From Amphiscolops sp. MND2022 (lineage: Eukaryota), in the NCBI GenBank assembly GCA_964187785.1, contig OZ076409.1, positions 68,450,001 to 68,514,000 on the forward strand: 64,000 nt of DNA, read 5' to 3'. Below, in pieces: positions 7,879 to 51,797 of the stretch. Within the stretch, counting starts at the first letter, position 1; the number at the start of each line of letters is the position of its first letter. The notes beneath the pieces are model-generated. The model searched no databases and had not been told where the DNA came from. It saw only the letters and a list, made by a program, of their open reading frames with translations. Both the position numbers and the translations under genes were made by a program.

Positions 7879-7927
7879 TTTCTTTGTTGCAAATAGAATT
7901 GGGTAATTTAAGCTGCTGACTGTGCCT

Positions 7928-15467: not shown

Positions 15468-15736
15468 TGTACTGACCTACATTAATAACCAATAGTATTT
15501 AGATGTTTATAGAATGTTCTAGAATGTACATTTATTTGTTATTGAATGATTGTAAATCTCTACTCCCTCAGAGAGAGAAAAATAATAATCAGTATTCAGT
15601 TGACTTCCTTTTTGTTCTACTTCTAACACCTCGAACTAGTTGTAATAAAGTAAGCTAGCTAGCCTGGCTCCCGGCCGCTTTTAGTAGTTGTGTATAAGAC
15701 CAACCAAAGAACTAACCAACCATTAAAAGCAGCTCA
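15468..15736 (+). repeat. 5' LTR of giant element
   Basis: Direct repeat of 33637-33905; contains AATAAA at 15644. Confidence 0.96.
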
Positions 15737-15752: not shown

Positions 15753-17576
15753 AAAATTTCTTGCCTTTTCTCCTAAATGATTTCTCTTCTCTCAACAATC
15801 ATACAAATACCACTCTCCATATTTGAAATTCTCTGGAACTGCAGTGAAATCTTTCTAGCATTCCTTGAAAGTTTAGTCTGTGACTTTCTGAATTTCATCA
15901 ATAAATACATCATCGTTCGAAACACAATTTCTCCACTACAACAATCAACTTAAATATAACAAATTTTCTTCACTACCGGTTTATCACGTTTTCTAACACG
16001 TTGACACGGTTCTTCCTCATGTTCTTTTGCCATACCGGTTTATCACGTTTTCCAATACGTTGAAACGGTTTCATTTCGGACTGATTTATCCAAAGTGACA
16101 CAGTTCTGTTCTCTATACTGATTTATCACAGCTAATCCGGAAGCTTGTTGAAACAGTTCTTTGACGTTTGTCTGGTTTATCAAGGTTTTCTAAAACCTTT
16201 GACACAGCAACTTTCTTCAATCCTGCTATCTTGAACGTCAGGTGGACTCCTGGTGTAATAGTTAATTGAGTGCATGTCCAACTCCGCTCACCTATAAGCA
16301 CATACGTCTCAAGATCAACTTCGTGTTGGCAGAAAACCTGGATTTTCTACTTTTACGTTTCGAATCCACTTTCTACAAAATTTCCTACAAAAAAAATTCA
16401 GAAATAGACTCTGAAAACAAAAAAAGGCAACCAAGACTAACTACAAAAAACAACCACGCACTATTCCATTTCTTTTCCTATTGTCGACAAACAATACAAA
16501 TAAATTCACAAAACTTAAATAATACAAGTAACTTCAAAAAATTTCAATAACCAACAAAAATAACAACACAAAGTACACTCAACCTTATCTCTAGTACTTT
16601 CAATGGTAATAATTTTAACATAATCCTACAAATCAATTATTTTAACAAAATACCACATACAATTCTCACAACTCTTTTGCTTTAAAACTTAAAATAAGGC
16701 ATGTAAATAACACAAACACAGTAAAGTTAGTTTTCTACTTTCAGGCACCCACAATTCCTATCCCCTCCCGTAAGACTTAGCCAATCAGACAGCCTCACCA
16801 GCTTACTCTGATTCTAAGACTGACTAAAAACCTTAGTTAAGTGTAAACGTCTTTAAGGAGAATCGAGAGGACACCGAACTACGTTCGAATCTTCAAAATT
16901 CTCAGAAAGTAAAAGTAAAAGTAAAAGAAACAAAGATCAAACTTTGATCTTGATCAGTATTGATCAGACTTTGGATAGTGGACGTTGATTGTTCAGAGTT
17001 CCACTCCCTTAGTCTTAAAACACACAACCCTTGTTATAATTAAAACAATCTTAGTTTTTCTGGACGTGTCAGTAACCTTATGTTAGACACCTTAAAGTGA
17101 TCCAGACTTAAAATAACATTTAGTTTCTGTTAGCAATCCTTTGAGGTTGAATACAGATCCTACTGCATCCGCTTCTTTCTTCTCTATCCAAAACTATTAA
17201 CTTCTCAAATAACATCAAATTACAATACAAATTAAATGAACCCTAACATATACAACCAAGCAATTTATCCTTTCAACTTTTACATTCCGCCAATTAGCTC
17301 CCTTCAAAACCCTACAGCAAACGATTTTGAAAGATTAATTGAACGATATCAACAATATTTTTTCTTTATCATAAATCAACAACGACATAACCCAAGAGCT
17401 CCAACTTAGAAAATGTCTATAAAAATCAATTGCAACGTTCTCACCTTCACATTATAACATGTGGAAAAAGGTTACCACAGTAGTACTCATTACAACATAC
17501 ACGTTTTGTGTCTTATTTATAGTTTGTGTCCTTCTTGAAAAAATACTTACGGTGATGAGAGACAAACTTTAGAAAA

Positions 17577-20500
17577 ATGTCCTTAACAACAACCTATTTA
17601 CCTTTTCAAACCCCCATCATTAAAAATGCAAAAGTTGTAAAATTAGAACTAAACCCATTCCTACAAAACATTATTTCACATTATACACAACCACTCCCAT
17701 TTGAAAATGAACCACACACAATTGAAACAATCCCTCTTATTAGAGAACATTTGGACACATACCTTTTTATATTAGATACAAAGTTTTAACAATCACCGAA
17801 GAATACCCAACTTTTCAAATCTCCTTTCTTCAACAAAGACTTAATTCATCTCATATATACAGAAGAAAAATAAATCCAATAAACATTCAAGTTCCTATTA
17901 AACAAGTTTTTCATGCTTTTCTAAACAATGTAAAAGACCACAACTTAGCACAGGAAATTCCAAACTTTAGTCCAAATGCACTCGACGATCTTCAACGATA
18001 CATAGACAATTTCGACGCAGAAATTATTGAAAGATTAGTTAATCCTGAAGATAATCCCCATCATTGGTTACAAGCTGATATATTACGAATTCAAAATTTC
18101 ATCTACCATTACTTCAAAGACTTAACATTAAATGACCAAACAATTCCTCAGATCAAAGTAATATCTTTATTTCTCAGAAAATACTTCAGATTTAATTATT
18201 AACTATTATGGTCACAACAAGATCAATCTGCTTTTACAGCATTTCCAGATCATTTTACATTAGAAGAATGTTTACCATTCATCATCAGTGAAAAAAATGA
18301 ACATCCTTACTTTCATAAACCACAATCAATTACAAAACAAACCTTAGATTACATACATTCCGATCCTCTATTAATTACAGAAAATGATCTATTCGCAGAC
18401 AATAGACCTTACCACTATGAACAAAATTCTCAAGATCAACAAAATTTACATTTTAACACTAACAATTCTACTGAAGATGATAACACCGATCAGGAAAATA
18501 CAACCCAACAACAAAATCAACCTGAAAACTATAACGATAATGAGTTTACTACCCAAGAATCTACAATTTCAACACATAATCCATCACAAACAGGGACATC
18601 AACATCAGTACATACTCAATCCTTTAGAGTTCCCACTAGAGTTGTAAACCAAAGACAAACTACAGATAGTCCTCAATCTCACTTAGCTACATCTCCAAAC
18701 CTTAATATAACTTTTAACCTTCCACATACAGATGACACACACGATGAAACCCATGATACATTCCAGGATGATATTCTAACTACATCTAGTGCTCAGAATA
18801 CTTCTGTTAATGTTGCATCTCCAACAAGAACTAATCCTGATTATACAAGATACATTACTCGATCTAGATTTGATCCTCCATCAATTCCCTCCGCCTTTCG
18901 CTCAAACAGATCGACCTCTTCCAACAACAATTTTAATGATAATCCCCAAACTTCCAACCGATATTACGATCCATTTAATTATAACTTTTATCCTCCATCA
19001 AATACAACTACCAATACATATATCAACCAACATCACTCTCAAATTAATACAACTTCAACAACACAAAACCCCTTCATACAATTATCAAATACCAATATTT
19101 CACAGAATATATATTCTCGAAATCAAGGAACCTCGTATCCTTCCACTTCTTATTCTAATATCACACAGGATTCTCAAAGGAGACTTCATAACCCTCCACT
19201 TACACATATACCAACGGATCCTCTGTATCAAATGCATCCAAATCCAAATCCTAACCCTAATTCAAATCCATTACCACAAAATACAATCCAACATATACCT
19301 CCACCACTCACACAACAATTAGCTCCTCCACCCCAATATTTACCAATGCCACAAGATACTTTTATAAACATGTCCGCTTCAATATCAGAACCTATGAAAC
19401 CTTTTGATGGTTTGGACCATTCTTACACCCCCGAAGAATATCTACAACAAGTCGAAGCAAGATTAACCTTCGCCATAGGTGAAGAACCTCAAAATAATCC
19501 TATATAATACAAATCTTGGCATAACAGACGCATGGCTTACATACCATGTTCATTAACAGGAACAGCTCTCGATTGGTACACTAACCTCCATATATCATAT
19601 AAACAACAATGGAATTCTTTTGTACAATTATTCAAAAAACAATTCTCATCTCAAAAAACTGCTTACTACGCTCAAGTAGAAGCTATGTCACTCATGAAAA
19701 AGGATAATGAAACAGTTCGCCACTTCGCCCTTAGAGTACAACAATTAGTAAAAAAAGGGTTGGTGTAATGAAAATGCAGCTACCATAAATCTCAAAAATA
19801 ATGAAATCTTTACAAAAGGGTTACCAAAGAAGTTAAAAAATTTTGCCCATAAACGACAAGTTAAACATGTATCAACATTACTTGAACCTTCAATACCATT
19901 TCATACACTTGTTAGACATGTCGATTCTGAAGATATTGCTAATGAAAAAATTAGAACTAACGACTTAGCTCTAGAAATAAACAAAGTATCGCTTAAGATG
20001 ATACTAACAAAAAGAATTTGAACATGAAGATCAGATAATGGTTACTCAATCTGGAGACCCAAATAACAAAAGCAAACCAGCGTATAGAAAATATTGTTCT
20101 TATTGTCACAAAAATAATCATAGTATTTCAAATTGTTATCAAAAACAACGTGATGACGAATACCAGAAATACAATAACCAAAGATCACGAACTCCTCAAC
20201 AATCCTTTGTACAATATTTTCGCAGTAAACCTAATAATCCTCAAGAAAATCGAAATGACAATACAAATCCTTACTCTTCAGATAATGATCGTAATAAATA
20301 TAATCAAAATTACTATAATGATAGATACAGAAACAATGATAGATATCGTAGCAATAATAGAGAATATTCGCAAAACAACTATAGATCAAACTCTCGACAA
20401 AGATATTATAATCGATCCCGGAGTCCGTATAGATCTCGATTTGATAATTATTATCAAAGAAGAACTCCTTCTAGATCTCCATATAGATCTCCATACAGAA

Positions 20501-20700
20501 ATAACTCAAATTACAGATATAATTCTCGCTCAAGATAAAGATGTCGTTCTCAATCACAAGGAAACTCCTTCAAACGATATAGTTTTCCATATAGATCTCC
20601 ATCAAGACCTAGAGATTTTAGATCAAAATCTAGAACACCCTCAAGAAACAGACAACAAAACAGAATAAATCAAGTAGACGTTAAATCTGCAAAAGAAAAT
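17577..20700 (+). pseudogene. gag of giant element (long N-terminal extension, capsid, CCHC knuckle, RS-rich tail); interrupted
   Basis: Capsid-like PMKPFDG...PEEYL and SLTGTALDWY...ETVRHFALRV; knuckle CSYCHKNNHSISNC; RSRSPYRS repeats. Several point stops and frameshifts. Confidence 0.88.
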
Positions 20701-23700
20701 GATAGTACAAAATTTGAAATTCACACCTGTCAAATAACTGAAATAGCTAATACAATCACTCCTTATAGTTGGTTTTATCCACTATATATTCACGCTTCTG
20801 AAACAAATGATAACATATTACCTTCAAAGTTAGAAATCTTATTCCTCTTAGATACTGGAGCATCCATATCTGTCTGTTTTGAATTTACCAACATTTCATG
20901 TAATTTCCAAACAATTAAACATCAATGTTCCAACTAACCTCCAAAACAAAAGAGCCAAAACTCTTACAGTTGCAAACCAAACTGAAGTACCAATAATACA
21001 TTATATTTCGATGACCTGTTTCACTGAAGTAAATCACAAAACACGATCCTTCAATATCGATTTTGCCGTAGCAAATATCAAATACAACATTCTTGGAACA
21101 CCCTTTTTCGAAAAGCACATCCAAAATATTGATTTTCAACAAAATATTATGACATACATAGAACAACATCCAAAGCTTCCAACAAAAACAACATTTTCCA
21201 CATTTGCAGAAAAAGATTACCCATATATTTCTTACATTTATACTATTAAATGTAAGGAACCAATTCACTTTAAACCAAGGTCAGGAAAAACCATACATTT
21301 CCCAATTAAAAACTATTCAAATCTACATTTTGAACTTTAGGATAATACAAAATTCTATCCAACAAACCCATATACAAATTTCTTACAAAAATTCAAAAAT
21401 ATCTTTCATTTCTTAGATATGATAGTCAATGAAAAAAGCAAAGACTCATGTGCAACCATAACTCAAAACTTTACATCTTACTCAGCTACATTACCACGAG
21501 GAATTATTGGATATATAGAAATACCTATTACTCAAACAACTCCTCGTCACTACAGAGTTAACTATGTAAATTCACCTATTCACTCTGTAATACATGCGTA
21601 TCACCCTGATACCACAACTCCGATTCAACAAAATTCTTATGTAGATATGAACTTATGTACTAGGGTAACACCACAATCCTTATTAGAAAACAAGATAGAA
21701 ATCAACGACAAAACGCTTCAAATTCCTATACCTTCTGTTACTGGAAACCTTCGACCCTCAGATAAAATTCGAAAAGATTTCCCTCCATTACCCTATTCTA
21801 CAGAAAATCAACAATTCATAAAGAAGTTCAATTTTGAATACTCAGATTTAACCGATACAGAATTTGTAAACCTCTGCAATATTCTGAATAATAACCAAAA
21901 TTGTTACGCCGAACATAAGAACGACGTAGGAAAGATTTCTACCCCCTTTCGAATTAGAATAAAAGATAACTGTAAACTTCACACATAAAGACCTTCTAAA
22001 GTACCTATTCACTATAGAGATAGAATAAATAAATTTTTATTAGAACTTGAAAAATACAACATCATAAAACAAATTGGTTCAACAACAGATGAAAAACATC
22101 CTATTGGAACAACATTTTTAAACCCTTTAATTATTATCCCCGAAGGAGACGCAATAAAAGTTGTTTTAGATGCAAGACATCTAAACTCAAACACTAACCA
22201 AGAACTTGAATCTTGGCCTATTGAACCTTTAGCTCCTCAACTAGCTAGAGCCAATAAAAAATACAAATCAACTATTGATCTAATGTATGCATATGCTCAT
22301 ACACCATTAGACGAAGAAACAATTAAACTTACAGGATTTTCATCCGGTGACAAATTATACGCCTTTATCCGTGGATTGTATGGATTAAAAGGACTTCCGA
22401 ACTTTTTTACAAAACAAATGTCAACTTTCTTTAGATCGCTTATAGACAAACGTTCTGCGTTAGTTTATATCGATGATATTTTATTACTCGCAAACGAAAA
22501 ACAAGAAATGTTTGAACTTATAAAAGAATTACATACAATAGCATCTCGAGAAAATCTCAAACTTGCACCTGAAAAATCATTCTACATGTTACTCAAAGTA
22601 AAATTCCTTGGACATGAAATTGGTAACAACACAATTAAACCAATTCCATCCAAAATTGAAGCTATTAAAAGAATTCCATCACCAAAAGAAAAGAAAGATG
22701 TTATGCAATTTCTTGGCAGTGTTAACTTTTATTCAAAATTTATTGAAAAACTTCATATAAACCTTAAACCATTGTATACATTACTACATGATGATGTTAA
22801 ATTTCAATGGACACCTGAATTAGAAAAAATATTTCAAAATGTTAAAAATACAATGACAGCAAACACTGAATTAACAATACCCAACACCACGTATCCATTT
22901 TTCATAATAGTAGATGCTTCGTTAGTAGGTTTAGGCGCAGTCTTATTCCAAATGAACGAAGAAAATAAGATGAAAGTAATCTCTTATAACTCCAGAATTC
23001 TTAAGACACAAGAACAAAAACTTTCAACTTTAGATAGAGAACTTCTTGCAATAGTCTACGCACTGCAAATATATGAATTTTTGATCATTGGATCTCCTCA
23101 TCCTATATACCTCTTCACAGATCACAAGCCTTTACTACATTGTTTCGCAAAGAAAGGAAATCTTAGTCCTAGATTCTATAGAGCACAAATGCAACTAACC
23201 AAATTCTCCAAACTAAAAATCATTCATACCCCTGGAAAAAAATTAACTGTAGCAGATATGCTTTCACGAACCTTTACAAAAGAACAGTTACAAGTACACC
23301 AATTACGACACAAGCAATTACCATCTCAAATAGATTTCTCTATCATGAAAGATAATCAACTCAAACCAGTACATTATTTAGTAAAACATGAAGAAATAAA
23401 ATATAATCAAAAGAATGATTGTCATCCTATCCTTGCTGACTACGGAGACGACCAATTCTCTATCCGTATAAATAACAAAGGAGAAGAAATACACATAAAG
23501 CCTTTAGATTCCTTCACTTTTCAATCTATTGTTCCATTCGAATCAAAATATAAAAAGCCTACAAAAAACCAAGCAAAATCTCTTTTACAACAATCGACAA
23601 TTCTTAATGATACTGGCATTCTTAGTGATGAAGATGAAATAACTCAATCAAATAATATCCAACAACAAAACTCAGACATAGTAAAAGAACACACCCTTGC

Positions 23701-25605
23701 TATACAATATCCTACCAAATCCGACTATTGTAAACAACAAGTTCCATTTTTTGATCCATCCTTTTTCAAATACAAAAAGTATTTTAATTACTTCTTCCTA
23801 CCAGAAGATACACAAATAACCATTGAAACAATAAAAACTCAACAAAACCAAGATACTGTTTTACAAAAGGTTTACCAATGGATACTTAATAATGAAAGAC
23901 CCTTACAAATAGACCCAACAATTGCAGCTAACTCTTTCTTATTAGTATATTACAAAATCTTCAACCAATCATATATTAATCATGATACAAAAACTATCCA
24001 CATAGATTATCCTAATCCTCACGATTCCAACCCGAATCAAAGAGACAAAATATGTCTCCCATTTAAACTTTTCCACGCAGCTTTTGACAAACTTCATGCT
24101 CATGGACATTCAGGAATAAAAATATCCATCAAAGCTTTCAACCAATTTTACTTCATACCGTACTTGAATAAATGGATGTCAATATTCATCCATGATTGCA
24201 TTGAATGCCAACAAAATAAACATATTAACCAAAAATTACAAACTGCATCTATACTAACCTTCTCAGAAAATGCTTCATATTTTAATTACCGAATATCAAT
24301 GGATACAAAAGGACCTATAAACCCACCATCAAATCAAAATTCATACATTCATGTTATAGTAGACGCTTTTAGTCACTTTGTAGTAACAGTACCTATAAAA
24401 CAAAAAAATGGTCAAAACGCTGTTAACTCATTACTACATCATTGGATAAAAAAATTTGGACCTCCTGTACATCTAGTTACCGACCGTGGAACAGAATACA
24501 TTAATTCAGAATTTGCAAATCTTGCACAATGGGAATTAGACATTCACCAAGAACTCCTCATGCACCATGGACAAATGGTTTAGTTGAAAATCAAAACAGA
24601 AATCTTGGAACTCATCTCAGACTTTTCTTACATAACACTCCAGAAAATTGGTCAACCCAAGTTCATATGTATGCTTATGCACATAATTCACAACCACTTT
24701 CTGAAGTAAACTTATCTCCATTTGAAATAGTATTCCATACTATACCCAGAATTCCAATCAACTTTGAACTCAATCTCCAAAGAGATACATATAGAAATTG
24801 TACTTCTCAATATTGTCAAGAATTACCACTTCATACACACTATGACAAATCAAATCTAAACCCTTTCTTTCATAAAATTTTATCTGAACCAATTCCACAA
24901 TGGATCTTAGCTACTGAAACTGCTATGATACAGATATACCATACGGTATACGAAAACACAAAAAGAAAGATTAATTCCTATGCTTATTTTAACAAAACAT
25001 ATCACAATCCAAGACCCTTAGATATTGGTACATTTGTACTAAAAACAAATTTTCTCCATGTTCATTTTTCCGATAAATTAAAACCTCTCAGAAATGGCCC
25101 ATTCAAAATTATTAACAAAATCTCCGACATAACATATGAAAGTGTTAATCAAGATGGTTATACATCGCACATACATAGAAATCATTTAATTCCTTATCAT
25201 CCAAAAGAACCAGTTATTTTTCCTTTCCTACAACAATTTCATCCTCATTTATTTAATGACTGTCATTCAAATATAAACGATCAAATAATTAACTCTGATG
25301 AAGGCAAATTTACTGAAGAAGAACAATTTCCTTCCACAACATCTAAAGAAACGGATATACCATTCACGATTGACTTACAACCAGAATCATTTAGCCAATA
25401 TTGTTCATTTCCATATAAACAAAAAGAACAAATTCCTCAAAATACCTACCTGGATAACCAATCAGATATTCATGACTATGATAACTTTATTAATCCCCGA
25501 AGACACTCCTATAATAGATACAATTTCCGCCCACAACCAAGAAAAGACTACCGACGTTTCCTTGGTGAAAACGATATAATTTCACTTTCTCCAAAATCCT
25601 GCTGA
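20701..25605 (+). pseudogene. pol of giant element (PR, RT, RNase H, IN); interrupted
   Basis: LLDTGAS with DTG at 20851, in the gag frame. YIDD at 22466-22477. RNase H VDAS...RELLA...TDHKPL...ADMLSR. Integrase HGH..CIEC, MDTKGP, TDRGTEY, NGLVE. Stops at 21338 and 21986; frameshifts near 20875 and 24525. Confidence 0.95.
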
Positions 25606-25794
25606 AATACGGAATACAGAAAAAAGCACAAAAAGAAAATTTGAAAGAAAAGCAAAAGTTTGAAGTTTACTGTGAAACTGAACGAAAAATATTTCACAAG
25701 TGATAATAAACGAAAGAAATCGATATGAAACTATAAATACTTTATAAATTGAAACAAACTACCTTAACACAAAGATTTCAAAATTGATAGACAT

Positions 25795-27244
25795 ATTCAC
25801 TCGCCATCATCAACCACAAATAACTCTTCTTCTAGTTCAACATATTCACTCCAAAGATTACCTGAATATACAGCATATTTAAACTCAGATACAGACATAC
25901 TGGATTTCTCATCCTCAAATCCCAGTCCATCCGCTCCATATACTCCTGATAGAGTACCAACAACACCCACCAATACACCTATAACCCAAACTCAAACAGT
26001 AATAATAACAACTCAATCACAACCTGTTTAACGAAATCTAACATTTGTAGAAACAAATTCACCACTTTCTGACTCTAATGATGAAACTCCTACAATACCA
26101 AATACACAAGTTACTTCAAATATTCAAATATTTTAAATAGACCTCCTCTTCCACCGATTACTACCACTCGTTCTATTCATATCCCTGATCCTAGCTCAGT
26201 CCTACAATACATAAATTCTTGTCCACACAAAGTACCAACCGCAACGAAAACAAAAAGAAAAACTCCTTTACCTACATTACCACAAAATCTTGATTTACCA
26301 TCATCAAGTAATACTCCAATAACAGTTTTACCAGAACCTTCATTGAAATCACCAACGAAGGAAACACAGCAACACCCAACTCCTTCACCACCTGAACTAA
26401 GTTCATTCACATTTTCTCAAATATATCCCAAACTTGAATGACAACGTGTACATTCAACCACCACCTCTTCATTAACAGATTTATATCATAAAGATAAAGA
26501 TTCTGACTCAACTGCTAGCACTAGAGTACCAAGACATAATTATAACCTTCGATCTCAACAACAAAGAAATTCTCAAGAATTACAATCTTTAACTAGTTCA
26601 AGTACAAACTCAAGACTATTTCGACAGCACGCCCAACCCAGATTGGACACTTCTTCTCTTTCCTCATCTCAACCCACTATACCATCTTCTCTATCACTGC
26701 CATTTCAAATCACATCAGGATTTGAAACAGCCTCTCTTCTTTCTGAAGAGCCAGTAACTATATCAGATAGCGCAGCTAATTTTTCACGAGTTTACTCACC
26801 TAGTTCAATAGCATCAAACTCTTCCATACAATTACCTGAATATTTTTAGAAGATTTCTCAAGACCTCCATCGCCAAATCCTCACGAATATCCTATTCGTG
26901 TTAATTCAAAAATTGTTCGCACGCTTAACGAAGATCCTCGATACACGGTATTACCTGCAAGATTTATAAACAACAGTTCACTCTCAACTCAAAGAAAACA
27001 AAGAGAACTACGAAGATTACAAGAACAACAACTCACATTAAAATTTGAAGTAGAAGTCACATTCAACTCGTTAGGACCTCATCCATTCTCTCTTTCAACA
27101 AGAGTAGCACACAAAACAACCCCATCACCATTCATAGTCACATCCATTTCTTACCTTTGTGACGCAGATTTACCTGAGATTAGAACAGGACATATACACT
27201 TTTTTAATCCCTACTCCGGACTCAATTATAGATCACTATTTTAA
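25795..27244 (+). pseudogene. Decayed Ser/Thr/Pro-rich accessory ORF between pol and env
   Basis: Frame fragments SPSSTTNNSSSSSTYSLQRLPEY...PSPSAPYTP, DTSSLSSSQPTIPSS..., and a terminal globular-looking part (LKFEVEVTFN...GHIHFFNPYSGLNYRSLF*) that stops 2 nt before the env ATG. Confidence 0.6.
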
Positions 27245-27246: not shown

Positions 27247-29824
27247 ATGAACCAAACCACCTTTACCCTATATTTATTATACATAATACAAGTTGTTAAA
27301 TACACATATATAATACACATAGTCCACTCTTTAGTTCACCCTTCAACTGTTCCTAAAGTTGACACCACCAATTCTGAAAATCATATTTCAGACCAAGATC
27401 CTAACATTTTAAACTTGATGGTATCTCATTATGATTGTGCAAAACAAAACAACTTAAGACAATTCTGTTTATTAAATGTAGAACCATGTAAACAAGCACC
27501 CTCAGATATACAACACACAAAAACCCAAGCAACAGTTTATGTTAGAGCAAAAGCTAAAAGAATAAAAGCCTTTAAATGCCAAGCATATTTAAAGACTGAG
27601 AAAGTCTGGTGTTCACAAACATTCACATCTAGTAGACGATATGATCGTTTACAATGGGGACAAAACACATTAGAACTTCCAAAAATATTGGACCCTATTG
27701 AATGCAAAAATATGATGAGATATTTAAACGCGACTGATAGTGAAGAACTAAACAACTACAATATACAAAGTTCTTTCTCATTGTTCGACGATAGTAATTA
27801 TCAAAACACAATTGAACGAATTCAGACACCATTTAGAGTAAAAAAATCAATTACATGGCATATTGGAACCTTCGTATTTGATGAAAATTATCCCGACTGG
27901 ATAGTTAATGTTACACAAAATACATACTCCAGATGTCGATCAGACCGAGAACATTTAATTACCCGACAAAGTTGGAAACTTAGAAATGTTAACACCGCAA
28001 TAGATTATGACGATAAAAACAATCAATTAATACATGACGGACACATATTACCATGTTATCATTCAGACGGATTTTGTAAACCAACGACCAAAACTCCATA
28101 TACATTAACATGGTTTGATGAAAAGTTTTGCCTCATATTTCAACTTCAAGAATTCATTGGTAGAATGACACGAATCAAAGATAGATATTGGATAGAAACC
28201 GATACCTTCATTGAAACTTCAAACATCACACAAAAACTTCAAACCGAAGGAATACAAGGGACAAGATATCCTAATGTAAAAACACCACAATCAAAAGTAA
28301 GCAATCCAAGCCTTTCTCGATTTGAAATGTACCCAATTGCACAAACCTTCTGTTGAAAACCTGAACTATTATTTTCAACACAATATGATGACATCTTTGT
28401 TACATACTTAGATGGTTTTGATATGAACACAGGATTTCCCAAAACCACACTCAATAATTGACCAAACAATTAGTGGAAATATAAAATATGATGATTCAAA
28501 CAAAAGGTATATATTCCCTGCATTGAATATATCAAACAATTTCGCCACTTTAGATTATGATGCCCATATTAATACAAAGATTGATTTCACAATAAATCAT
28601 GTATTTAAATCCATGACAGTACAAGAACTAAACACTCTTCATACAATATGTGAACTGGAAAGAACTCAATTATTAACGATCTTAGCTATGTCAGTTAAAA
28701 ATCCTCAATTAGCCGGTTTTCTTTAAACTGGAAATCGTAGTAACTTTCTCTACGTTGAAGGATCTACAGCATGGCTGTATGATTGCCCTCATTTTATATC
28801 ACCACTATACAAGGCAGACAAATGCTTTGATAGAATTCCTATACACTACAGAGAAACGATAATGTATGTTGACCCAATAACAAGACAAATTTTTAACTTT
28901 GCAACACCAATTGAATGTGGAAATAAGCCACAAAATATAATAGATTTAGATCCAGATTCTAACGACGGAGATTTTTATGTGTTAACACCAGAACCACTTA
29001 AACGAGAAGCACCACAAATGTTTAAACCTACCCAAATTAAAACAACAATCACTCCTAATACATTTACCACCCAAGATGCCGGTATTTACTCAAATGCAGA
29101 ATTAGATCAATTCTGGAATAGAGTACTAATTGCTAAACATTCTGACACAACTCTCCAATTACTTGGAAAATCATTAAGCTATGATTTCATCTCAATGCAT
29201 AATGATAAACACTCATACTCAGGACATAATCCCTATAATCATTTAAGGATTGGAGTACATGACCACTTGTTAAACCTTTTACCACTTTTCAACCCTGACT
29301 GGTTCAGTCAAGCATTCATTAATTTCTTTGGATATCCATGTTATGTTTTAACTCAATGTGGAATTTATTTTTCAACATTTCTTTTCATTAGAGAAGTTTT
29401 AACATTTTTACTCAAATTCTACAGAACAATTAGCATAAAATATAATCTCCAAAGCAACATTTCCATTTTGAGTTCAATAGCCCATGGATTTTTTAATATA
29501 GTTACATCGGAAATGGTAACCGATTTAAACAATACAGGAAAACGAAAACGGATATATACTAAACACAAAATTACAACAAGTGAAAATGATAATATCCTAT
29601 TGCCGGAAAAAGAATTAAACAATAAACGAAGACACTCTGATACTGATTCCCCTTATTTACCTCCTAAATATTCCAGTAAGAATTCAACATTTCAATCACC
29701 GCAAAAGACACACCCAACTAATGTAAACGATATTAATTCTCAGGACTATGACCCAATAATGTCAAATGTAATAGCTGTACCGGAAAGCCCTGCTAAAGTC
29801 TTTATAAAATTCAATCCCTCCTAG
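27247..29824 (+). pseudogene. env-like glycoprotein, class III fusogen (herpes gB / chuvirus G-like); two stops and a frameshift
   Basis: Hydrophobic N-terminus; YDC...LLNVEPC...FKC...WC...IEC pattern; ICELERTQLLTILAMSVKNPQLAGFL-TGN...EGSTAWLYDC...KCFDRIPI...YVDPITR...IEC; GIYSNAELDQF; C-terminal hydrophobic TM segment and cytoplasmic tail. About 860 codons when rejoined across the stops at 28354 and 28724 and a frameshift near 28460. Confidence 0.85.
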
Positions 29825-30280
29825 CTGTAAAGCAATAACTTAAAAAACAAATTAACCTCAGAAAAAGTTCAAAAAATTATCAACTAAATTCTTCTCAGTC
29901 TAAATTTCTAATCAACTAAACTTCATTCAAACCCAAATTCTCACTCGGACCGGTCTCTCCTTTTCAACTTAACAACAAATTCACTTGCTCACCAAAACTC
30001 AACTCTCAACCAGAAGACTTCAACTGGATTTTCAGTCCATCTAAAAGACCGAAATCACAGAAGTTTCTATTCCTGGAATAGATGCCATTGTGATTGTTGA
30101 TGTTTTCAACCCATCATTGACTCAGTATTCCCATATTGTAAGTACAATTTAAATTTCAATATTAACAAACAATTTAATGGATAGGAAAGACATAACAAAA
30201 TTTTTCCCTATTATTAGAAACAATATAATCAAACGTTATAATCATTATTTTAGCTCTATAAAAACACGCAAGTTTAAATA

Positions 30281-31330
30281 ATGGAATCCTTGCCCGAAAT
30301 TGATGTAGTTAACTCTAATCCCTCTGAATTGCTTGCATCCCCTTTGAATATAACTATTCAACAAAATGTTAACGAAGATAATAACTCTTCTTCCAACTCT
30401 CAAGACCCCATAGAAACTATTCCTATTGAACAAGTAGATCATGTTAACGCAAGATCTCAAAAAAGAAAGTACCCAGATATAGCTGCAGATAAACCTTTTA
30501 TGGAATCTGGCGCTTGCCCTCCTTTCATAAAACCAATTAAACAAGATGAAGATAGAGATTGTGAACTAGTTCCTATTCTCTCGTCAAAACACTTCACCTT
30601 TCAATCTCAGTTAACTTCGTTATACATGATTCCAACAAAATATAAATTCATCATCAGAGAATTTAAAAATGATTATCATACATCAATTGCTTCAAAATTG
30701 ATTACCCCATATGATTGGTGGTTAAACAATAAAGTGAAAATTTTCTCACTCCAATACAACTTCCTCAGACCATCTCCATATGATCTTCGAACCGAAGAAA
30801 ATGATGCAAATTTTTTGCCATACCAAATCAAAAAGGCTCACCACATGACTTATCAAAAGTTTCTTCAATATAAAGAGCCCGATACTTATATATTCTTCAA
30901 CTCCAAATATACATCGCCATTCACTTTCAACTCAAAATATTTAATAGATCATACCAAAACAAAAGGAAAACTTAGAAATTATGACCCGCTGAAACAAAGT
31001 TTTCTCTTCCTTCCAAATGATAACCCAAAAAGACCAATCATTGTACCACAAGAATACCTCATTCTGAACGACGATTCGTTACTACAAGAAGATATACCTC
31101 AACATATATCTGATCCTCTTCCTCCACTTCAACATATAGCCTCTCAACCTTTGGGAGACTGTGAAAAATCTTATTTTCACGCAATGACCGAAAAGGGATA
31201 TTCGAATAATGAACTAACTTTTATTATTTCTCATCTGCTTTCACTTCTTACAAATGGAAATCACAAAGAATATAAAAAGGCGAAACAAGAATCGCCTAAG
31301 AAAACCAAAAATGATATTCCTCAACCATAA
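30281..31330 (+). CDS. Unknown 349-aa accessory ORF of giant element
   Basis: Long ATG-initiated sense ORF inside the LTR boundaries. May continue by frameshift to about 31573. No motif recognised. Confidence 0.65.
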   Translation: MESLPEIDVVNSNPSELLASPLNITIQQNVNEDNNSSSNSQDPIETIPIEQVDHVNARSQKRKYPDIAADKPFMESGACPPFIKPIKQDEDRDCELVPILSSKHFTFQSQLTSLYMIPTKYKFIIREFKNDYHTSIASKLITPYDWWLNNKVKIFSLQYNFLRPSPYDLRTEENDANFLPYQIKKAHHMTYQKFLQYKEPDTYIFFNSKYTSPFTFNSKYLIDHTKTKGKLRNYDPLKQSFLFLPNDNPKRPIIVPQEYLILNDDSLLQEDIPQHISDPLPPLQHIASQPLGDCEKSYFHAMTEKGYSNNELTFIISHLLSLLTNGNHKEYKKAKQESPKKTKNDIPQP

Positions 31331-32096
31331 AGTTTTTGCCCAACAGATGAATTACAGAAATATACAGAAATCCTGAAGATCATAAAACCGTACCATCATC
31401 CGAACCGAGATATTCATATAACAATCGCTGAAATCGTAAATACCCTTGAACAAGCTCGAAGCATAATACAAAATATCGTATTTGATACGACAAGAATTAG
31501 CCAATCAGCTTTGTGCATTCGCACATCTTTAGACGAATTCAACTACACTATTGAAAAATTGCATCGATCTTAACTGGTAATTATGGGATAATCACTTTAA
31601 AATTGTTAACACCTATCACTTAATCTCTTAACAACCTGTCAAAATTAATTGAGTCTATACGTATATGCCTGCTATGCACGATTATAAAACATGCTTGATG
31701 TTAAAATACACTTTTAAAATAAAATAACATAAAAAATTTTCAATCACGACATAAAAATTTTCAACAAAATTCCTCAATTGCTCCTCCTTTTATTGGACCG
31801 ATTTCAACAAATAAGTACTTATTTGAAAGATATTCAAATACCCTTCAAAAGACTTTCAAAATACAACAACTTAATTCTTAAAATTAAAAAGTTATAATAT
31901 CACAAAGTTCAATAAAAAAATGTCAACTACGAAATTCTATTTTCAAAGGAACTTTATTGTAAACAAACTAATCTATTTTAGGTGAATATCGTCACAACTG
32001 CTTCTGCAGCATTCCTTCCTCCTCTCAGGTCACCCAATCAAGAAGAACTCCAAAGTATCTTCTACAACTTTCAACGAAATTTTCCCATTCTTCAAT

Positions 32097-32573
32097 ATGA
32101 CAACTATTCATTCTGGCGACATAGACTGCCCGATAGCTCCTTTTCTTTCAATCTCTTCAGCTCGATTGCGATTTTTGATCCTGAAAAAGCATTTAACGAC
32201 ATTAAATGCGCAGCTTAGAACAGTCAAAAAGGCAGACCCACATCTTACAAGGATGATATTGCTTAATATGTTCCAATTATTCCAATTAACAAGAATAAAT
32301 TTCGACCAATATCTCCTTATTCATAAACATCCTGACACTTATGCAACCCAACGAGACGCCACTACCCAAACAGAACATACTACCATCAAGTCCAAACGTT
32401 TAGTACGAAATCTATCCAATAGAATGCGTTCTGAAATGGAAAAACAACGTCTAAATTCTTATTGGCCTTCAGATGATAATGATGATACTGACGAAGAACT
32501 TCAAAAAGACCCTCCAGAAGCACTTATAGATGATAATTACCCGCACAAAACATATACTTACGTTTCTTTCTAA
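32097..32573 (+). CDS. Unknown 158-aa accessory ORF of giant element
   Basis: ATG-initiated sense ORF with helical-looking core and acidic tail; overlaps a decayed upstream frame (31920-32218). Confidence 0.5.
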   Translation: MTTIHSGDIDCPIAPFLSISSARLRFLILKKHLTTLNAQLRTVKKADPHLTRMILLNMFQLFQLTRINFDQYLLIHKHPDTYATQRDATTQTEHTTIKSKRLVRNLSNRMRSEMEKQRLNSYWPSDDNDDTDEELQKDPPEALIDDNYPHKTYTYVSF

Positions 32574-33636
32574 TATCAACAGACGCCATCAACAGCACCC
32601 GTCCACTCCCATCTTCGAATCCCACATCTTCAACGATTGATCGTCGCAGATCAGCACCCGTCTTCAACTTCATCGCCGCCCAACAGTGCCCATCTTCATT
32701 CATCTGCTGACCCTTCTTCATCCATCTTCCAATCTTCAATCGTCACCCATCCAATTCTCCGCCGAAGATGATCGATATTTAATAATAAAGAAAACTCAAA
32801 GAAAAACATTGTGCATGATAACATTTCGAAAAGTTTCAAACTCATCAAATATTTAGAGAATTCAAAACTCTTACCGAAAATATTCACTATGTAGTTATTA
32901 TTTCAAATTTCATCCCCACCCACATTTATTTGCCCAAAAATCCTTTATTCACACCCGTACCGATATTTATTTGCTTTATTTTTAAAGAATAATTAGTAAT
33001 AATTATTATTTTTCGGTGCTATCCTATCCAAAAAATTCACAAATATTATCAATAAATCTTTTCAAATTTCAACAAAACCAGCTCAAAAGTAGATCAAGCA
33101 CATTTTTCAAATCAAATTCGAATAATGACAAACCCAAATTCTTGACGTTTTCAACATTTGTTACATAACAAACCCGCCAAAGTTAATCACAACCTGAAAT
33201 CTTTTCGGACAAATTTCACGCTCGATGGAAAAATTTTCTCTTCTCAACGATATTATTTCAATGACTCTTTGACCTTTAACTCGTATGATGTTTGCTCACG
33301 TTTGTTCAATGCGAAGTTCTTTCGAAAACTTCAACAGAAGCATAAAATTGAGCATCTACCAGTTCAAAAACAAGCCGACGAAAGCATAGTGAAAAAGAAC
33401 ACTTTGACGCTTTTTGAACTGTAGTCGCACCTACGAGGTGTCAATCAAAAATTTGACAATTCGAGGTACATCAATGAGTCGAACTTACACCACTCTTAAC
33501 GAGACTTATGCCAATCATCCATCTAATGAAAAATATTAACTAGCTGAAACGCTAAGAACATTTAAACAAAAATTTTTCTTCATTTCAATTAATGATGCTA
33601 CTTTAAAATTTTATTTTATTTGAAAACTGGGATGGA

Positions 33637-33905
33637 TGTACTGACCTACATTAATAACCAATAGTATTTAGATGTTTATAGAATGTTCTAGAATGTACAT
33701 TTATTTGTTATTGAATGATTGTAAATCTCTACTCCCTCAGAGAGAGAAAAATAATAATCAGTATTCAGTTGACTTCCTTTTTGTTCTACTTCTAACACCT
33801 CGAACTAGTTGTAATAAAGTAAGCTAGCTAGCCTGTCTCCCAGCCGCTTTTAGTAGTTGTGTATAAGACCAACCAAAGAACTAACCAACCATTAAAAGCA
33901 GCACA
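33637..33905 (+). repeat. 3' LTR of giant element
   Basis: Direct repeat of 15468-15736; preceded by the PPT-like tract and followed by TSD AACG. Confidence 0.96.
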
Positions 33906-33909
33906 AACG

Positions 33910-34813
33910 TCTAAAGTTGGCGCTATACCTAAGGCTCAAAAAGCGCAAAGTTTTTAAAATATGCCCAGAACGTTTCAATGAAAACAGTTTCAAAACATTC
34001 AAAGGGTGCCTTTCGTGCTTGGAAAACGCTTCAGAGATCAGATGAAGCGTGTTGAGACAAATACCAGCGCTTTTTGATTCTACGCTTCCTCCTCAGTAAA
34101 AAGCAATATAGTTCGGATACAACGTCAAAAGTTCGGATATAGCGTGCTGGGACAAATGGAGGCGCTTCTTTTCAAACCTCCGCCTCATCCTTTGCAAAAA
34201 GCATTACAGTTCAAATATAACGTCAAAAATTCGAATACAGCGCAAATTTTTTGAACCACCTCCAAATACAAAATTTGGACAGTATTGGAAAAATTATTGG
34301 TGGAACCATATTGAAAAAAACCTACTTTCAGGCCAAAATCAGAATTTTGAAACAGTCTCATAGTTCCGAAAATGAAAAAAGGGGGACCATTTTTGCTTTT
34401 TCAACATTTTTAAACAAAACATTGAAGGGGAACCTTTAAAGACATTTGAAAATTTTTAAAGAAACTCAAAGAAAGGAAAGTTTTGAACAGTCCCATAATG
34501 CCAAAAAATCTGAAAAGGAGATTCTTTCGGATTTTTAGACATTCATTTTGTAGCAAAGTATCAAAAAACTTGAAGGGGGACAATTTGAAGACATTGAAAA
34601 TATTTCAAAAAATAGTCTTATAGTGCCATTGACATGCGGACACTTTCCACTAACTTGGATGCGTTTTCGCTGGCCAGACGTAGCCGGTACAGTACTTCAG
34701 TAGTTTTAGCAGCTTCTGTAAAAATGTGTCCACTACGCATAGATTCTGTTATTGTAACCACTTACTGTAACGGTCGGGTTTTTTTCGTTTAAGGAAAATG
34801 CGCCGACTAAAAA
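33910..34813 (-). mobile_element. HINE-like element interrupted by the giant retroelement (tip at 15453-15467)
   Basis: Rejoining the flanks gives AACAAAACGGGAACGTCTAAAGTTGGCGCTATACCTAAGGCTC, matching the family terminus at 37865 and 14146. The other end, GCGCCGACTAAAAA, is at 34800-34813. Confidence 0.7.
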
Positions 34814-35090
34814 GACTAAGAAATTGAAGGAAAGAAGAAATTATTCCCATTTCGTCTGAAATTGGAAGTTTTCACGAAAATTTTGATAGCGAAAAGTGAA
34901 CAAACTTTTGCTCAACAACTTGGCTGTAAATATAGTACCAAAGCTTGCTATGGGAAGATGGTATCCGAAAGGGCACCAACTTATAAAAGAAGAACTGCTA
35001 TTCGGCGTCCACCGAAAAAAAAACTTTTCTCTCCATCTTTTGCTTAGTCAAGTATTGTGTGACGCAAAAAAGTAACAAATATGTTTCCAG

Positions 35091-35283
35091 AGCTCTGCAA
35101 AAACAAAAGAATCTTCAATCGCTAGATCTTTCGGGTTCTGCAGTGGAGGAAACAATAGAAGTTGTTTCCGAGAACATTACGGAAATCCATCTCAGACGGT
35201 GCAAATTTGACAATGACCTTCCTCTACAACTATCAAAGCCGTGGTCTCTGCGGAAGCTGGACTTAACTGGGTCTTCTCTTGAT
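35091..35283 (+). CDS. LRR protein, exon 4
   Basis: TTTCCAG acceptor; LRRs NLQSLDLSGS, ITEIHLRRC and SLRKLDLTGS; donor GTGAGT at 35284 (phase 0). Confidence 0.85.
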
Positions 35284-36264
35284 GTGAGTACAAACTTATG
35301 GTAACACTTTCATCTGTTCGCTTGCTAGCTTTTTATTTCAGGTGTTGTATTGCACTGGAATCAACTTGTTAAATTGTGCAAGAGCTCGACAAAAAAATGG
35401 GTTCAAATATCATCCAAAGAAATTGCGATTAAAAGCTGTGACAGTATTAAATCTTCAAAGCAATTTATATAAAAAGAGGCCATATACTTATGCTTTCGAA
35501 CCAGGAGCGAAGTGCAGGAACAAGCCTATACTGTACTAGTGGCTGGTTTAACGGAGGCCACATTGAAGGAAATAGACCGAGTCATGCAACAAATGACTCC
35601 CTTCATCCATTAATAAAGTTCAAAAAATAAAAAATAATTTGAGAGAATGGACTCCCGAAAAAATCTCAGTTCTGGACTAGTTGTTTTTTATCTAGTCTTC
35701 TATAAAAGAAGTTTTATCTTCTTTTATTCCTAACAGTTTCTGCCTGAAACTACTGGAAAGTTGGAAAGAACTTGTCAATCACTCACAGACAGAAATTTTC
35801 TCAATGGCTTATTTGCTAGGGTAGGGGCGAGGTTGGGAAGCTGGAATACTTTAGAAAAACTGTTTTTCCAAACTGATCCAAACGTTTCCCGATATAACGT
35901 TTTCTGAAATAACAATTATAACGAAGTGAATTTTACGAAGTAAAGAAATTGTCATTATAACCGAAACATCTTCACCGAAGGAATTCCATTTAAATTTCTT
36001 ATCTTTTCAAGTTGAACTATGGGGGAAGTTTTTTTTGTTTCAGCAATTACATACATAAACAGGCGATCTGAATTTGCAATTGTGAGAGCATAATCCAATG
36101 ATTTTTCAACGTCAGGTGCATTTTTTGGATCTTCCATGATCAGTTTTGGGCCTGAAATTTTTAGATCGTAATTCCATAATGCTGGATGTTTTTGGATAAT
36201 TTATTAGCTCATTTGCCGAGACTTCTGAAGGTTTTATGATGACTGAGGTTCTAAACGGGGATCT

Positions 36265-36460
36265 TGAATCCTCTTGCATTTTCTTGCCTATTCTTGGTTT
36301 CTCTTGTAACTCTTGATAAAGAATCTTGGAATTTCTTGAATTTCTTGGCACGATCTTGCAAGATCTTGCAATTTCTTGGATTTCTTGGTAAGAGTCTTGG
36401 CAAGATTCTTACCAAGAAATCCAAGAATATCCAAGATTCTTACCAAGAGTTCCAAGAGTT
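36265..36460. repeat. TCTTG/CAAGA short-period quasi-palindromic array
   Basis: A run of roughly 9-11 bp units containing TCTTG switches to the complement CAAGA near 36400. Confidence 0.75.
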
Positions 36461-37864
36461 TTTACACAGGGGAGCAATACATTTTTTAATCCAACCGAAA
36501 TTACCAAAAAATTTCTCAAAGTTTTCTCAAACTGTCCCCTTTTCCAATATTTCACAATTTTATATACTGTACGAACCCCATGCCCCTCTGTGAGAGTTCT
36601 GAGGCTGCGCGATTGTTGATTTCGTTTCACAAAAGGTCCCTTTTGTTATTTTTTGCTTTTTTCAGAATAACCTTTTCTATTCTATCTACGAAGGGTTTTT
36701 CACTTCCTTACTTTAGGGTCTCTGTGACATCTGAACTGTTTAACCAAAAAAATTTTATTCACCGCTTTTCTCAAGAAAAGAGTCGGCTATAGTCATTACT
36801 TTTCGTCAGTTCTTTACCGAATTTAACGCATACCGGATATAATGTATACCGGATACAACGTTTCTTGTTTTCAAGAGACTCGAATTGACAGTTTCAATTA
36901 ATAACTGAATAATACAGTAACTTCTGTCACTTGGCCTAGATGTAAGTAAGCACGCCATATCCGAACTTTTTTTAAATATTAAAATTTGTTACATTCGAAG
37001 TTAGTTGCGTTTCACTAAAAAAGAGGTGGAGGCCCGAAAATATTGCGCTATATCCAAACTTTGACGATATATCAGAAACAAATTGCGTTGTACTAAAGTG
37101 AAGGTGAAGGTTAGAATCTTATATGTTTCAATGTTTCGTTCCTTCCCGAAATAGAAAAAAGCACACTACATCTGTATTTTTTTCGTTATATCCCAAGCAA
37201 TTTATATTTCTAGTGGAAAACAAATGCCAAAAGCCCTTTTAGGCTCAAACAGGTCCCCTTTTAGTTCTATTTTCGGCATTGTGAAATTGAGTTTTTGTTT
37301 GGAAAGGTACAGGAAAGACCATATAGTCCCACCTCCGTTTTGTTTCGGTACTATGTGTTTTTTTCTGATTTTTTTTCAGAAGCCCTTCTTCAATTTTTAG
37401 CAAAAACAGAGCCTTTCGTGAGCACAGAGGGCCTCTTCGAATTTTTCGGCGCTATTCGTAAGCAATTTTTCCAAAACAATCGGTTGTTTTTTGAGGTTTT
37501 CTGTAACGGAAATTAGTTTCCCAGCTTTAAGGGTGACATTTTCGATTACCGTTTGGTCCTGTGGGATCGTTGTGAGTTTTCTCAATATCTGCGGAAAAAC
37601 CTACAGGTTTTTCGGCTCTGCAATTTTTACCATTTTTTTCACCAGAATTTCTCACCCTCTGTTTTTTGATGTTTTCAGTGGTGTTGGCCGGTAACAGATA
37701 CCAGTGAAAAGGAGGAGCAGGGATAGAAAGAGACATAAAGATAATACCAGAGAAGTTGAAGAGTTTTGCTACTTATTTCCAAAAAATCTCGAAGGAAAAA
37801 ATACTTTTCATAATTTTTCGCAGTTTTGGACAGTTTTCCGAAACGAAAGGCTCAGTAGGTATGA

Positions 37865-38302
37865 AACAAGCCGGGAACGGCATAAGTCGGCGCCATGTTG
37901 AAGGCTCAAAAATAGCACAAGGACTTCAAAGTGTCAAGTATTCTTTCACAGTACCTGAAAAACCCAAAAAGTTGGACCGAATTGGCAAGGCAGGAAGATC
38001 CCCTTGAGATTTTTCATCCATTCTGTCGCAAATCATCAAAAAAATGGAGGGGGCCCTTTGGTGAAAAAAAAAATTTTGAAAAAAGTCTCATAATGCCAAA
38101 AAACTGAAAGTCTCTCGCGGTATTGTATGCTACGTGGAATAAGAGGAAAAACCTTTTTAGTTCAGTTCGCTAGGCTAAATGATTCAATTTGGGACCATAA
38201 AATTTCGTAGAAATTTAAGAACTATTCTGGTCAGTTCGTGTGGATTGGAAAAAAGAGTCCTTATAATAGTCGCATTTCACTTTATGAAGCGCCGACTAAA
38301 AA
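37865..38302 (-). mobile_element. HINE-like element
   Basis: AACAAGCCGGGAACGGCATAAGTCGGCGCC at one end and ATAGTCG...GCGCCGACTAAAAA at the other; a second similar terminus follows at 38318-38357. Confidence 0.7.
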
Positions 38303-38635
38303 TAAACTAGCCACTGTAATAGTCGGCAATTTTCACTAGAAAAGCGGCGACTAAAAATGGGAGCGCTTGCATTCGAACCTCCGCCTTCTTCTTTGTAAAA
38401 CGCGATATTAAATATGAAGTGGAGTAAAAAAGTGGAGATTTGGCAAAATTTGGAAAACAAACGCAACACAGATATTATAATTTTCCTCCCCCATACACAA
38501 ATAAAATTGTGGGGACGGAAAACAATAAAACAAATATGTGCTTTCACTCTCACTCGAACTTTTTTACCTGAACTCTCCGTTGGGTTTCAAAGCACTCAAT
38601 AATCGTGAGAATGTGGAGATCACGTGCTGTTTTAG

Positions 38636-39560
38636 GTTGACTTATCCGTTTTTCCGGAGAACCTTTTTGGACTGGAGTGGCTAAGTTTGAAAAACACCAA
38701 GAATTTCGTGAACTCATACAGTGAATACTATTTTGCAAACAACACCAATATTGAATTCTTGGATCTTAGTGGGGTTCATTTGTATCTACTTAGCGCCACT
38801 CTGTTCAACAGTTTGCCGAATCTGAACACTTTGATAATTCAGAATGCCTACATTAGCTATAGCCCCAACGACTGGGGATGGTGCCCTTTTAAAACACTGG
38901 AGCTGCTTAATTTGGCAGGATCCGAATGCTCCAGTGGCTGCGGTTTCTGGAAACTCTTGGGGCAATATTGCAACATTATTACACTTGATATGCGCCAGAC
39001 TAAAGGTTTTAGTTTAGACTTTAATTCTGTTTTCCCGAACGTCACGGAAATTGACCTCACCGAAGCAACGGCGCAAAAGGTTTACATGGAAAATCTGCCA
39101 GAACTGACAAGTCTCCTTTTGACGAGGGCCCGCATTGAAACAAAGTTGACGCTACACAATCTGCCGTCACTGAGCCAGGTTGATTTCACAAACCTCGCCT
39201 CGACTTCGAAATACAGCCCGATTGAATTGATCGAAGTGTCAGATCTCCCTGAGTTGACTACTTTGGATTTTTCCCAACTGAGTTTTGAAAATTTGGAAGT
39301 CTCAAGTTTGACTGCTTTGTCTTCCATCTCATTTGATATGAGTGAAATAAACGCAATAGCGCTATCGGATCTACCTGAAATCGTGAGTTTAAATTTCAAA
39401 GGCAGTAAAATAGGCCAGTTGGCAATGTCCAATCTTCCCAACTTGCGCGGTTTAGATTTGAGTGGGCTTGACATCAACAACATCAATATAACCGGCTTCG
39501 AGTCATTGATTACTGATTTGGGTTTGGAGTATGAGCAGTTTTTGGACGCTACTACGCCAG
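38636..39560 (+). CDS. LRR protein, exon 5 (many LRRs)
   Basis: TTTTAG acceptor in phase 0 and in frame with the 38687 ORF. Repeated LxxLxLxx motifs. Donor CAG|GTTTGG at 39561. Confidence 0.88.
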
Positions 39561-51756: not shown

Positions 51757-51797
51757 TCTGTGTTAAGAAGTTTTTTGTTCAATTGTTTTAAAAATTG

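Follow-up and report, generated by a model that had tools for sequence, protein, structure and literature searches.

Two selected accessory genes behind env of a Ty3/gypsy retrotransposon in Amphiscolops sp. and their predicted expression from spliced messages

A stretch of 64,000 nucleotides from the genome of Amphiscolops sp. MND2022 (assembly GCA_964187785.1, contig OZ076409.1, positions 68,450,001 to 68,514,000 of the forward strand; hereafter the window) contains an 18.4-kb Ty3/gypsy long terminal repeat (LTR) retrotransposon with a chuvirus/gB-type env. A preliminary description, made from the sequence alone, had noted a cluster of open reading frames (ORFs) behind env: one of 349 codons, a decayed frame and one of 158 codons. 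Two of these are accessory genes, here called ORF-A and ORF-B, because both frames are kept in other copies and families, and their ratios of nonsynonymous to synonymous substitution (dN/dS) lie far below 1, which answers the comparison among copies that the preliminary description had proposed; the third, decayed ORF did not stand. We consider it nearly certain that ORF-A and ORF-B are protein-coding genes of the element, kept under selection, and that the middle frame is not. The positions of the features are given in Table 1.

Table 1. Features of the retrotransposon in the window (aa, amino acids; nt, nucleotides; PR, protease; RT, reverse transcriptase)
Feature	Position	Strand	Remarks
ORF-A, accessory gene, 430 aa in sibling copies	30281..31573	+	premature stop at 31328-31330 in this copy
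ORF-B, 158-aa accessory gene, intact in this copy	32097..32573	+	acidic C-terminal tail; without hydrophobic segment
ORF-B leader, 115 nt, likely non-coding	31982..32096	+	within the 'decayed frame' of the preliminary description
Predicted intron of 116 nt, GTAAG...TTTTAG, with its end 27 nt upstream of the ORF-A start	30138..30253	+	motif prediction
Predicted 405-nt intron, GTAAT donor-like site 3 nt past the ORF-A stop, TTTTAG acceptor-like site and branch-like motif	31577..31981	+	motif prediction
Conserved non-coding motif, about 32 nt, G/T-rich, upstream of ORF-A	30075..30106	+	function unexplained
5′ LTR (TG...CA)	15468..15736	+	3 differences from the 3′ LTR
3′ LTR, AATAAA at 33813	33637..33905	+	
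gag-pol (gag, PR, RT, RNase H, integrase; Ty3/gypsy order)	17559..25605	+	disrupted by stops and frameshifts in this copy
env, chuvirus/gB-type fusion glycoprotein	27247..29824	+	PF24664, E 1.9e-12; disrupted in this copy

The 349-codon ORF lies in the sense orientation between the LTRs, starting with the ATG at 30281. Its suspected extension to 31573 was borne out: 80 further in-frame codons follow the stop, and in 15 of 30 fetched copies the whole reads as one frame of 431 codons without a stop. ORF-A was intact from the ATG in 12 of the 30, and a stop at codon 350 was present in a single copy, the window's own. The 349-codon ORF and its in-frame continuation are one gene. A frame of this length had been called improbable by chance, and none of 2000 composition-matched simulations produced a frame of at least 349 codons, the longest having 256. 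The A/C-rich composition that the frames were said to share with the element was also found, as a C- and A-skew along the whole of its G-poor strand. When the 1.07-Gb host genome was searched for copies, all 116 scored matches to ORF-A (of 7287 candidates) were full length with 95-100% identity, and all 150 scored matches to ORF-B (of 1824 candidates) had 91-100% identity; these counts are lower bounds, ranked by similarity. Longer, fused forms of ORF-A had no scored match, a negative of little weight.

Among 1.84 billion representatives a search returned 271 matches, the longer ones down to ~30% identity, and all 10 clusters that were looked up were unnamed ENA sequences. Querying the genome with diverged matches revealed ORF-A homologues in two further families of the same genome, with 442-473 aa in family 2 and 495 aa in family 3. 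Four copies from families 2 and 3 were read over long stretches; in each of them the first long ORF behind env was the homologue, accompanied by gag-pol-env. The ranks of divergence agreed between RT (77, 73 and 70% identity) and the ORF-A core (48, 44 and 40%).

dN/dS was obtained from Nei-Gojobori counts with bootstrapping over codons, the pairs not being independent of each other. ORF-A was measured in loci picked on ORF-B, and vice versa; therefore, selection of loci on the tested gene was avoided. Between subfamilies, dN/dS of ORF-A was 0.16 (0.12-0.22; 21 x 21 loci of 30 + 30), and that of codons 351-430, past the stop of the window copy, was 0.20 (0.11-0.33). The values for ORF-A were 0.09-0.12 in family 2 and 0.08 in family 3. 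ORF-B gave 0.21 (0.14-0.30) in 24 of 30 loci picked on ORF-A and 0.18 between subfamilies, and the second ORF gave 0.11 in family 2 and 0.38 in family 3. The tail of env had a dN/dS of 0.26 among near copies. Between diverged lineages, substitutions in both ORF-A and ORF-B were in excess at third codon positions. The frames could instead be passengers that stay open through A/C-rich composition and recent amplification. The G-poor strand would favor such frames, and one of at least 158 codons arose by chance in 1.8% of the 2000 simulations, but dN/dS of 0.08-0.21 between diverged lineages, the third-position excess and the homologues at the same position in three families all speak against this explanation, which we regard as extremely improbable. 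It is refuted for ORF-A and ORF-B and holds for the middle frame.

The decayed frame (31920-32218) proved to be a fusion of two separate frames, its frame is not kept, and its dN/dS is above 1. The frame opened by the ATG at 31920 meets its stop after 21 codons; all 29 near copies and 20 of the 24 copies from the sister subfamily keep this stop. The second part is a 78-codon frame (31982-32218) without a start codon, with a dN/dS of 2.85 (1.29-11.9) outside ORF-B and 1.48 (0.54-6.0) inside it; frames of at least 78 codons appeared by chance in 88.7% of simulations. In the sister subfamily, the length of the leader to the ORF-B start was 0, 1 or 2 modulo 3 in 9, 8 and 7 copies, respectively. 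The middle frame is a non-coding leader and no gene. The third frame of the ORF-B leader had a dN/dS of 0.31 (0.13-0.88) in 23 near copies, yet it was set aside because it has no start before the predicted junction and was not kept in the sister subfamily.

ORF-B is the 158-aa ORF of the preliminary description, in the sense orientation and between the LTRs. The second ORF of family 2 is a distant homologue of ORF-B (hhalign probability 54%, E 1.3e-4, 27 columns). The corresponding ORF in family 3 encodes a Ser/Thr/Pro-rich protein of ~300 aa that is apparently unrelated to ORF-B, and for this reason ORF-B is the more exchangeable partner of the pair.

The ORF-A protein consists of a disordered low-complexity N-terminus, a basic tripeptide near aa 61, a conserved core (aa ~60-330) and a helical C-terminus. 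In each of the three families the tripeptide (KRK, KKR or KKK) lies ahead of the core; it resembles a nuclear localization signal (NLS), with three residues only. Neither ORF-A nor ORF-B has a transmembrane segment, the highest 19-residue hydropathy being 0.82-1.20 in 7 of 7 proteins. Pfam searches gave nothing at cut-off for ORF-A or ORF-B, either singly or over 62 alignment members; below the cut-off, MJ1010-like_2nd (E 0.004-0.2) was matched in family 1 only. GDSL, DEDDy and MATH domains of Pfam had no match in either protein, although MATH was readily detected in other families. PDB sequence profiles yielded no credible match, and the ESM Atlas no usable match, for ORF-A or ORF-B. The AlphaFold2 models of ORF-A were poor, with mean predicted local distance difference test scores (pLDDT) of 46 and 48, the latter for the ORF-A core. 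Fold searches with the models found nothing significant (best viral E 0.028; best PDB-wide Z 3.7, on the last helices).

For the three best strands of the ORF-A core model (pLDDT 63-73), the top Foldseek rows were the Tudor domains of PHF1, PHF19 and MTF2, aligned over 31 residues with a root-mean-square deviation of 1.5-1.7. This resemblance is a hint and not significant. One could nevertheless read ORF-A as a chromatin or small-RNA-pathway protein, in which a Tudor/SH3-like barrel at aa ~225-257 would read methylated lysine or arginine and activate the LTR or blunt silencing, and the acidic-tailed ORF-B would be a co-activator. Such a role would fit with the position of this stretch among the most conserved of the family and with the thousands of genome candidates, the mark of a very successful family. 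However, the alignments had a Foldseek E of 1.0 or worse and a VIA-align Z of 2.0-2.1 on a model with a mean pLDDT of 48, and Pfam and PDB profile searches matched no Tudor family to the stretch at E up to 10. We consider this explanation unlikely.

Both ORF-A and ORF-B lie at a great distance from the LTR promoter. Splice-like signals were found on both sides of ORF-A. The donor context of the predicted upstream intron was kept in 25-28 of 30 copies and its acceptor context in 25 of 30; an additional acceptor-like site before ORF-A ends at 30035. GGTAA occurred within 20 nt past the ORF-A stop in 49 of 53, 21 of 29, 40 of 43 and 15 of 22 distinct spacers of families 1a, 1b, 2 and 3, respectively, and in 0.07-0.7% of shuffled spacers. 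The remaining 7 spacers of family 3 had GGTAAG 50-61 nt downstream of the ORF-A stop. TTTYAG was present ahead of the next ORF in 52 of 53, 27 of 29, 42 of 43 and 22 of 22 spacers of the same families, and it lay 2 nt ahead of the start codon in the three family-3 copies displayed. Over its whole sense strand the element has 5 GGTAA and 11 TTTYAG, and 3 of the latter (30035, 30253 and 31981) are in the two spacers that flank ORF-A. Between families, the spacers from ORF-A to the next ORF did not align apart from short pyrimidine runs. Because donor-like and acceptor-like sites are kept in these non-aligning spacers of all three families, ORF-A is probably an exon that contains the whole gene, bounded upstream by an acceptor and, directly past its stop, by a donor. 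The motifs suggest that the messages of ORF-A and ORF-B are spliced.

The same intervals contain other conserved non-coding sequence. The spacer 31574-32096 is 77% identical between subfamilies while the synonymous divergence (dS) of the flanking genes is 0.74-1.39; therefore, it holds constrained non-coding sequence beyond the splice sites. The motif at 30075-30106 is shared, at 91-97% identity, by family 1 and two branches of family 2 whose synonymous sites are saturated. Families 2b and 3 yielded no counterpart, and only in family 1 does the motif form part of a hairpin; its long-range pairing was no better than that of 8 shuffles. Rfam gave 0 matches within 29800-33950. In the 5′ leader, a possible 46-nt GC-AG intron (16699-16744) and a GTAAG donor (16770) recur in most of the 12 copies aligned from the sister subfamily, but the stretch around them is conserved in general.

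The genes might be real and yet be expressed without alternative cis-splicing, whether from internal promoters, by trans-splicing at the acceptor sites or by re-initiation on a message that carries both genes. Consistent with this, a family-wide leader donor was not identified, the motif ahead of ORF-A and the highly conserved spacer between ORF-A and ORF-B could be promoter elements, and removal of the predicted intron in families 3a and 3b would leave only ~5 nt from stop to start. Promoters or trans-splicing would, however, have no need of the donor-like site that directly follows the stop in three families. Expression of this kind seems to us fairly improbable.

More distant gB-env Ty3/gypsy families of the same genome (RT 45-47% identical) carry different genes behind env: an ORF of 153-169 aa and then a coiled-coil/TRAF-MATH gene, a MATH gene alone, or a 519-aa coiled-coil ORF. 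The coiled-coil and TRAF/MATH genes (L262:329-1606, L264:306-1764, L266:221-1499 and L268:919-1920; PF21355 E down to 7e-22 and 3e-22) are mostly preceded by the unnamed 153-169-aa ORF, and acceptor-like sites lie ahead of several starts. The 519-aa ORF with its long coiled coil (L260:641-2197) stands singly behind env and had no Pfam match at cut-off. A published LTR retrotransposon that combines MATH/TRAF with an envelope was not found in our literature search; Burro elements contain a MATH domain according to the accessible text of PMC6431247. ORF-A and ORF-B profiles matched only 1 of 30 loci of the distant families, and the env of that locus is 60% identical to that of family 2.

The C-terminus of the short post-env ORF in the distant families resembles aa 200-260 of ORF-A by eye, and hhalign placed the two in the same register (probability 0.2%, E 0.24). 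A shuffle test of the last 65 columns gave a z of 3.4, with 0 of 150 shuffles as good. Comparison of the whole profiles found nothing; in the whole-versus-whole shuffle test 2 of 60 shuffles were as good, and unrelated element proteins scored similarly. Homology between ORF-A and the short ORF is a lead only.

These families bear on a further explanation, in which ORF-A and ORF-B would be cytoplasmic or particle proteins that interact with the host, such as decoys for immune or cell-death signalling or trafficking helpers for env-dependent spread. The coiled-coil and TRAF/MATH gene occupies the same slot, the second post-env gene is exchangeable between families, and the accessible texts on rotifer (PMC5408684) and planarian (PMC6431247) elements describe such cargo. 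Against it, ORF-A and ORF-B have neither a signalling-domain match nor a transmembrane segment, and the basic NLS-like motif is kept in ORF-A. We judge a host-interaction role to be fairly improbable.

The reading that we tentatively prefer, without regarding it as likely, is that ORF-A and ORF-B are selected accessory genes, likely expressed from spliced subgenomic RNAs, and that ORF-A is a nuclear regulator of genomic-RNA export. ORF-A would be an internal exon holding the entire gene and ORF-B the last exon. Inclusion of the former exon would produce the ORF-A message, and its skipping, via the next acceptor, would produce the ORF-B message. Full-length RNA with working splice sites would have to escape splicing and leave the nucleus, and an export factor would be made from a fully spliced message. 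ORF-A is the candidate for this factor, since all three families possess it and since it bears the conserved basic NLS-like motif. By analogy, a Rev- or CERV-like function of ORF-A in the export of genomic RNA is a possible prediction, with the balance somewhat against it. The preliminary description had offered host-silencing suppression, RNA export or transactivation as speculative roles; of these candidates, RNA export is indirectly favored by the conserved splice-like signals, which that description had not noted.

Several points weigh against this reading. The ORF-A family alignment has no conserved cysteine loop, and ORF-A has no arginine-rich RNA-binding run, its basic motif being just three residues long. 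Nei-Gojobori counting ignores transition bias, and dN/dS was higher among young copies (0.32-0.37; 0.37 for near copies of ORF-A), as expected if copies decay after insertion. The splice motifs and the 20-nt interval were chosen after inspection of the data, and the copies of one family do not count as independent observations. The family-1 acceptor of ORF-B is conserved but not uniquely so, with 41 of 518 windows equal or better, in a spacer that is 77% identical between subfamilies overall. Acceptors ahead of ORF-A are weaker and variable in position in families 2 and 3. No leader donor common to the families was found, and the family-1 candidates in the 5′ untranslated region lie in a generally conserved stretch. 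Finally, distant env families have other genes in the slot, and the ORF-A form is therefore not universal to spliced env elements.

The nearest known parallel is CERV of the Caenorhabditis elegans element Cer1, which was shown by experiment to be made from a spliced mRNA, to be nuclear and to be needed for genomic-RNA export; as described in the accessible text, it has ~500 aa, exons shared with gag, an essential cysteine loop and a G-protein-like domain (PMC10309623). In the literature covered, it is the one gypsy-type accessory protein with shown export of genomic RNA. ORF-A is like CERV, so far as the latter is described there, in being a novel protein of a gypsy-type element, in its size (430-495 aa versus ~500), in its candidate NLS and in having no homologues outside its lineage. 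Unlike CERV, it is a separate gene behind env without conserved cysteines, and its splicing and export function are predictions. By architecture, ORF-A is no CERV homologue.

Complex retroviruses have accessory genes such as Rev, Tat and Nef of HIV-1 and Tas and Bet of foamy viruses. ORF-A and ORF-B are similar to these in lying 3′ of env and in their predicted spliced expression from a shared LTR promoter. In contrast, their backbone is Ty3/gypsy rather than Retroviridae, no sequence similarity was found, and their role is a prediction. An independent complex-retrovirus design in Ty3/gypsy would comprise regulators of a new family with their own acceptors, an ORF-A cassette exon that switches two regulators, one of them controlling genomic-RNA export, and a beta-barrel core maybe shared with the distant post-env gene. 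We think this rather unlikely as a whole; if true, Metaviridae evolved regulation in the style of complex retroviruses on their own, using a new protein family.

Env-bearing Ty3/gypsy elements of invertebrates are usually described as gag-pol-env. Elements of this kind with a gB-type env (errantiviruses) were surveyed by Chary and Hayashi (PMC13524379). The present element is like theirs in its LTR-gag-pol-env-LTR layout, Ty3/gypsy pol order, chuvirus/gB-like env and many near-identical copies; unlike theirs, of which the accessible text describes three ORFs and treats none beyond env, it has two further selected genes behind env. The accessible part of PMC6431247 mentions additional ORFs behind env in a general way. 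As available to us, the reports describe non-envelope ORF3s of rotifer LTR elements as GDSL/DEDDy enzymes or membrane proteins, typically from spliced messages (PMC5408684), and sORF1 and sORF2 in the Drosophila MDG1 group, sORF2 being a short transmembrane fusogen in env-less elements (PMC11952523). ORF-A and ORF-B are likewise additional ORFs in animal Ty3/gypsy elements, but here env is retained and the extra proteins are soluble and unnamed. A literature search, mostly of non-subscription sources and with Repbase outside its scope, found no published description of ORF-A or ORF-B.

What is new is thus the combination of a known backbone type with an unnamed protein family and a predicted splicing design. 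In one genome, several families with recent activity maintain an unnamed protein of 430-495 aa under selection at least as strong as that on the env tail. For env-bearing elements, the question is how a full-length RNA that keeps its splice sites avoids splicing and silencing, and the predicted junctions of ORF-A and ORF-B are specified to the base.

The LTR pair of the window copy is flanked by a 4-bp target-site duplication (15464-15467 and 33906-33909), and a candidate resembling a primer-binding site, common to the three families, begins with TGG at 15740, 3 nt past the 5′ LTR. Pfam matches in gag-pol were PF03732, PF00078, PF17917, PF00665 and PF17921 (gag, RT, RNase H and integrase); PR is presumably represented by an aspartyl-protease motif. 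In two sister-family copies gag-pol is a single frame of 2207-2270 codons or more, and sister-family copies keep long open frames of both gag-pol and env. The PF24664 match of env was over its cut-off, and E was 6.3e-25 for a family-2 copy.

The 5′ leader behind the LTR is 1.0-1.8 kb long. The N-terminal extension of gag is unusually long, with the Pfam gag domain starting at about residue 685 of the single gag-pol frame in family 2 (window 17559-19507; L166:3379 onward; L174:3191 onward). The interval between pol and env holds a conserved frame of 412-453 codons with zero ATG in families 2 and 3 (L167:1704-2942; L175:1436-2797), which is broken in the window copy (25768-27244). Over its C-terminal 134 aa, for which Pfam had no match, the families share 38-46% identity; this frame may represent a third accessory gene, one that would depend on a start that is spliced in or is not AUG.

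Elsewhere in the window, a pair of LTR elements of ~5.9 kb on the minus strand, with 72-77% similarity, and another repeat with 5.1-kb spacing occupy 2302-8176, 46115-52046 and 55358-61947. Host coding stretches that resemble leucine-rich repeats by eye lie within 34987-41145 (34987-35304, 38636-39598 and about 40800-41145) and are probably exons of one or more host genes.

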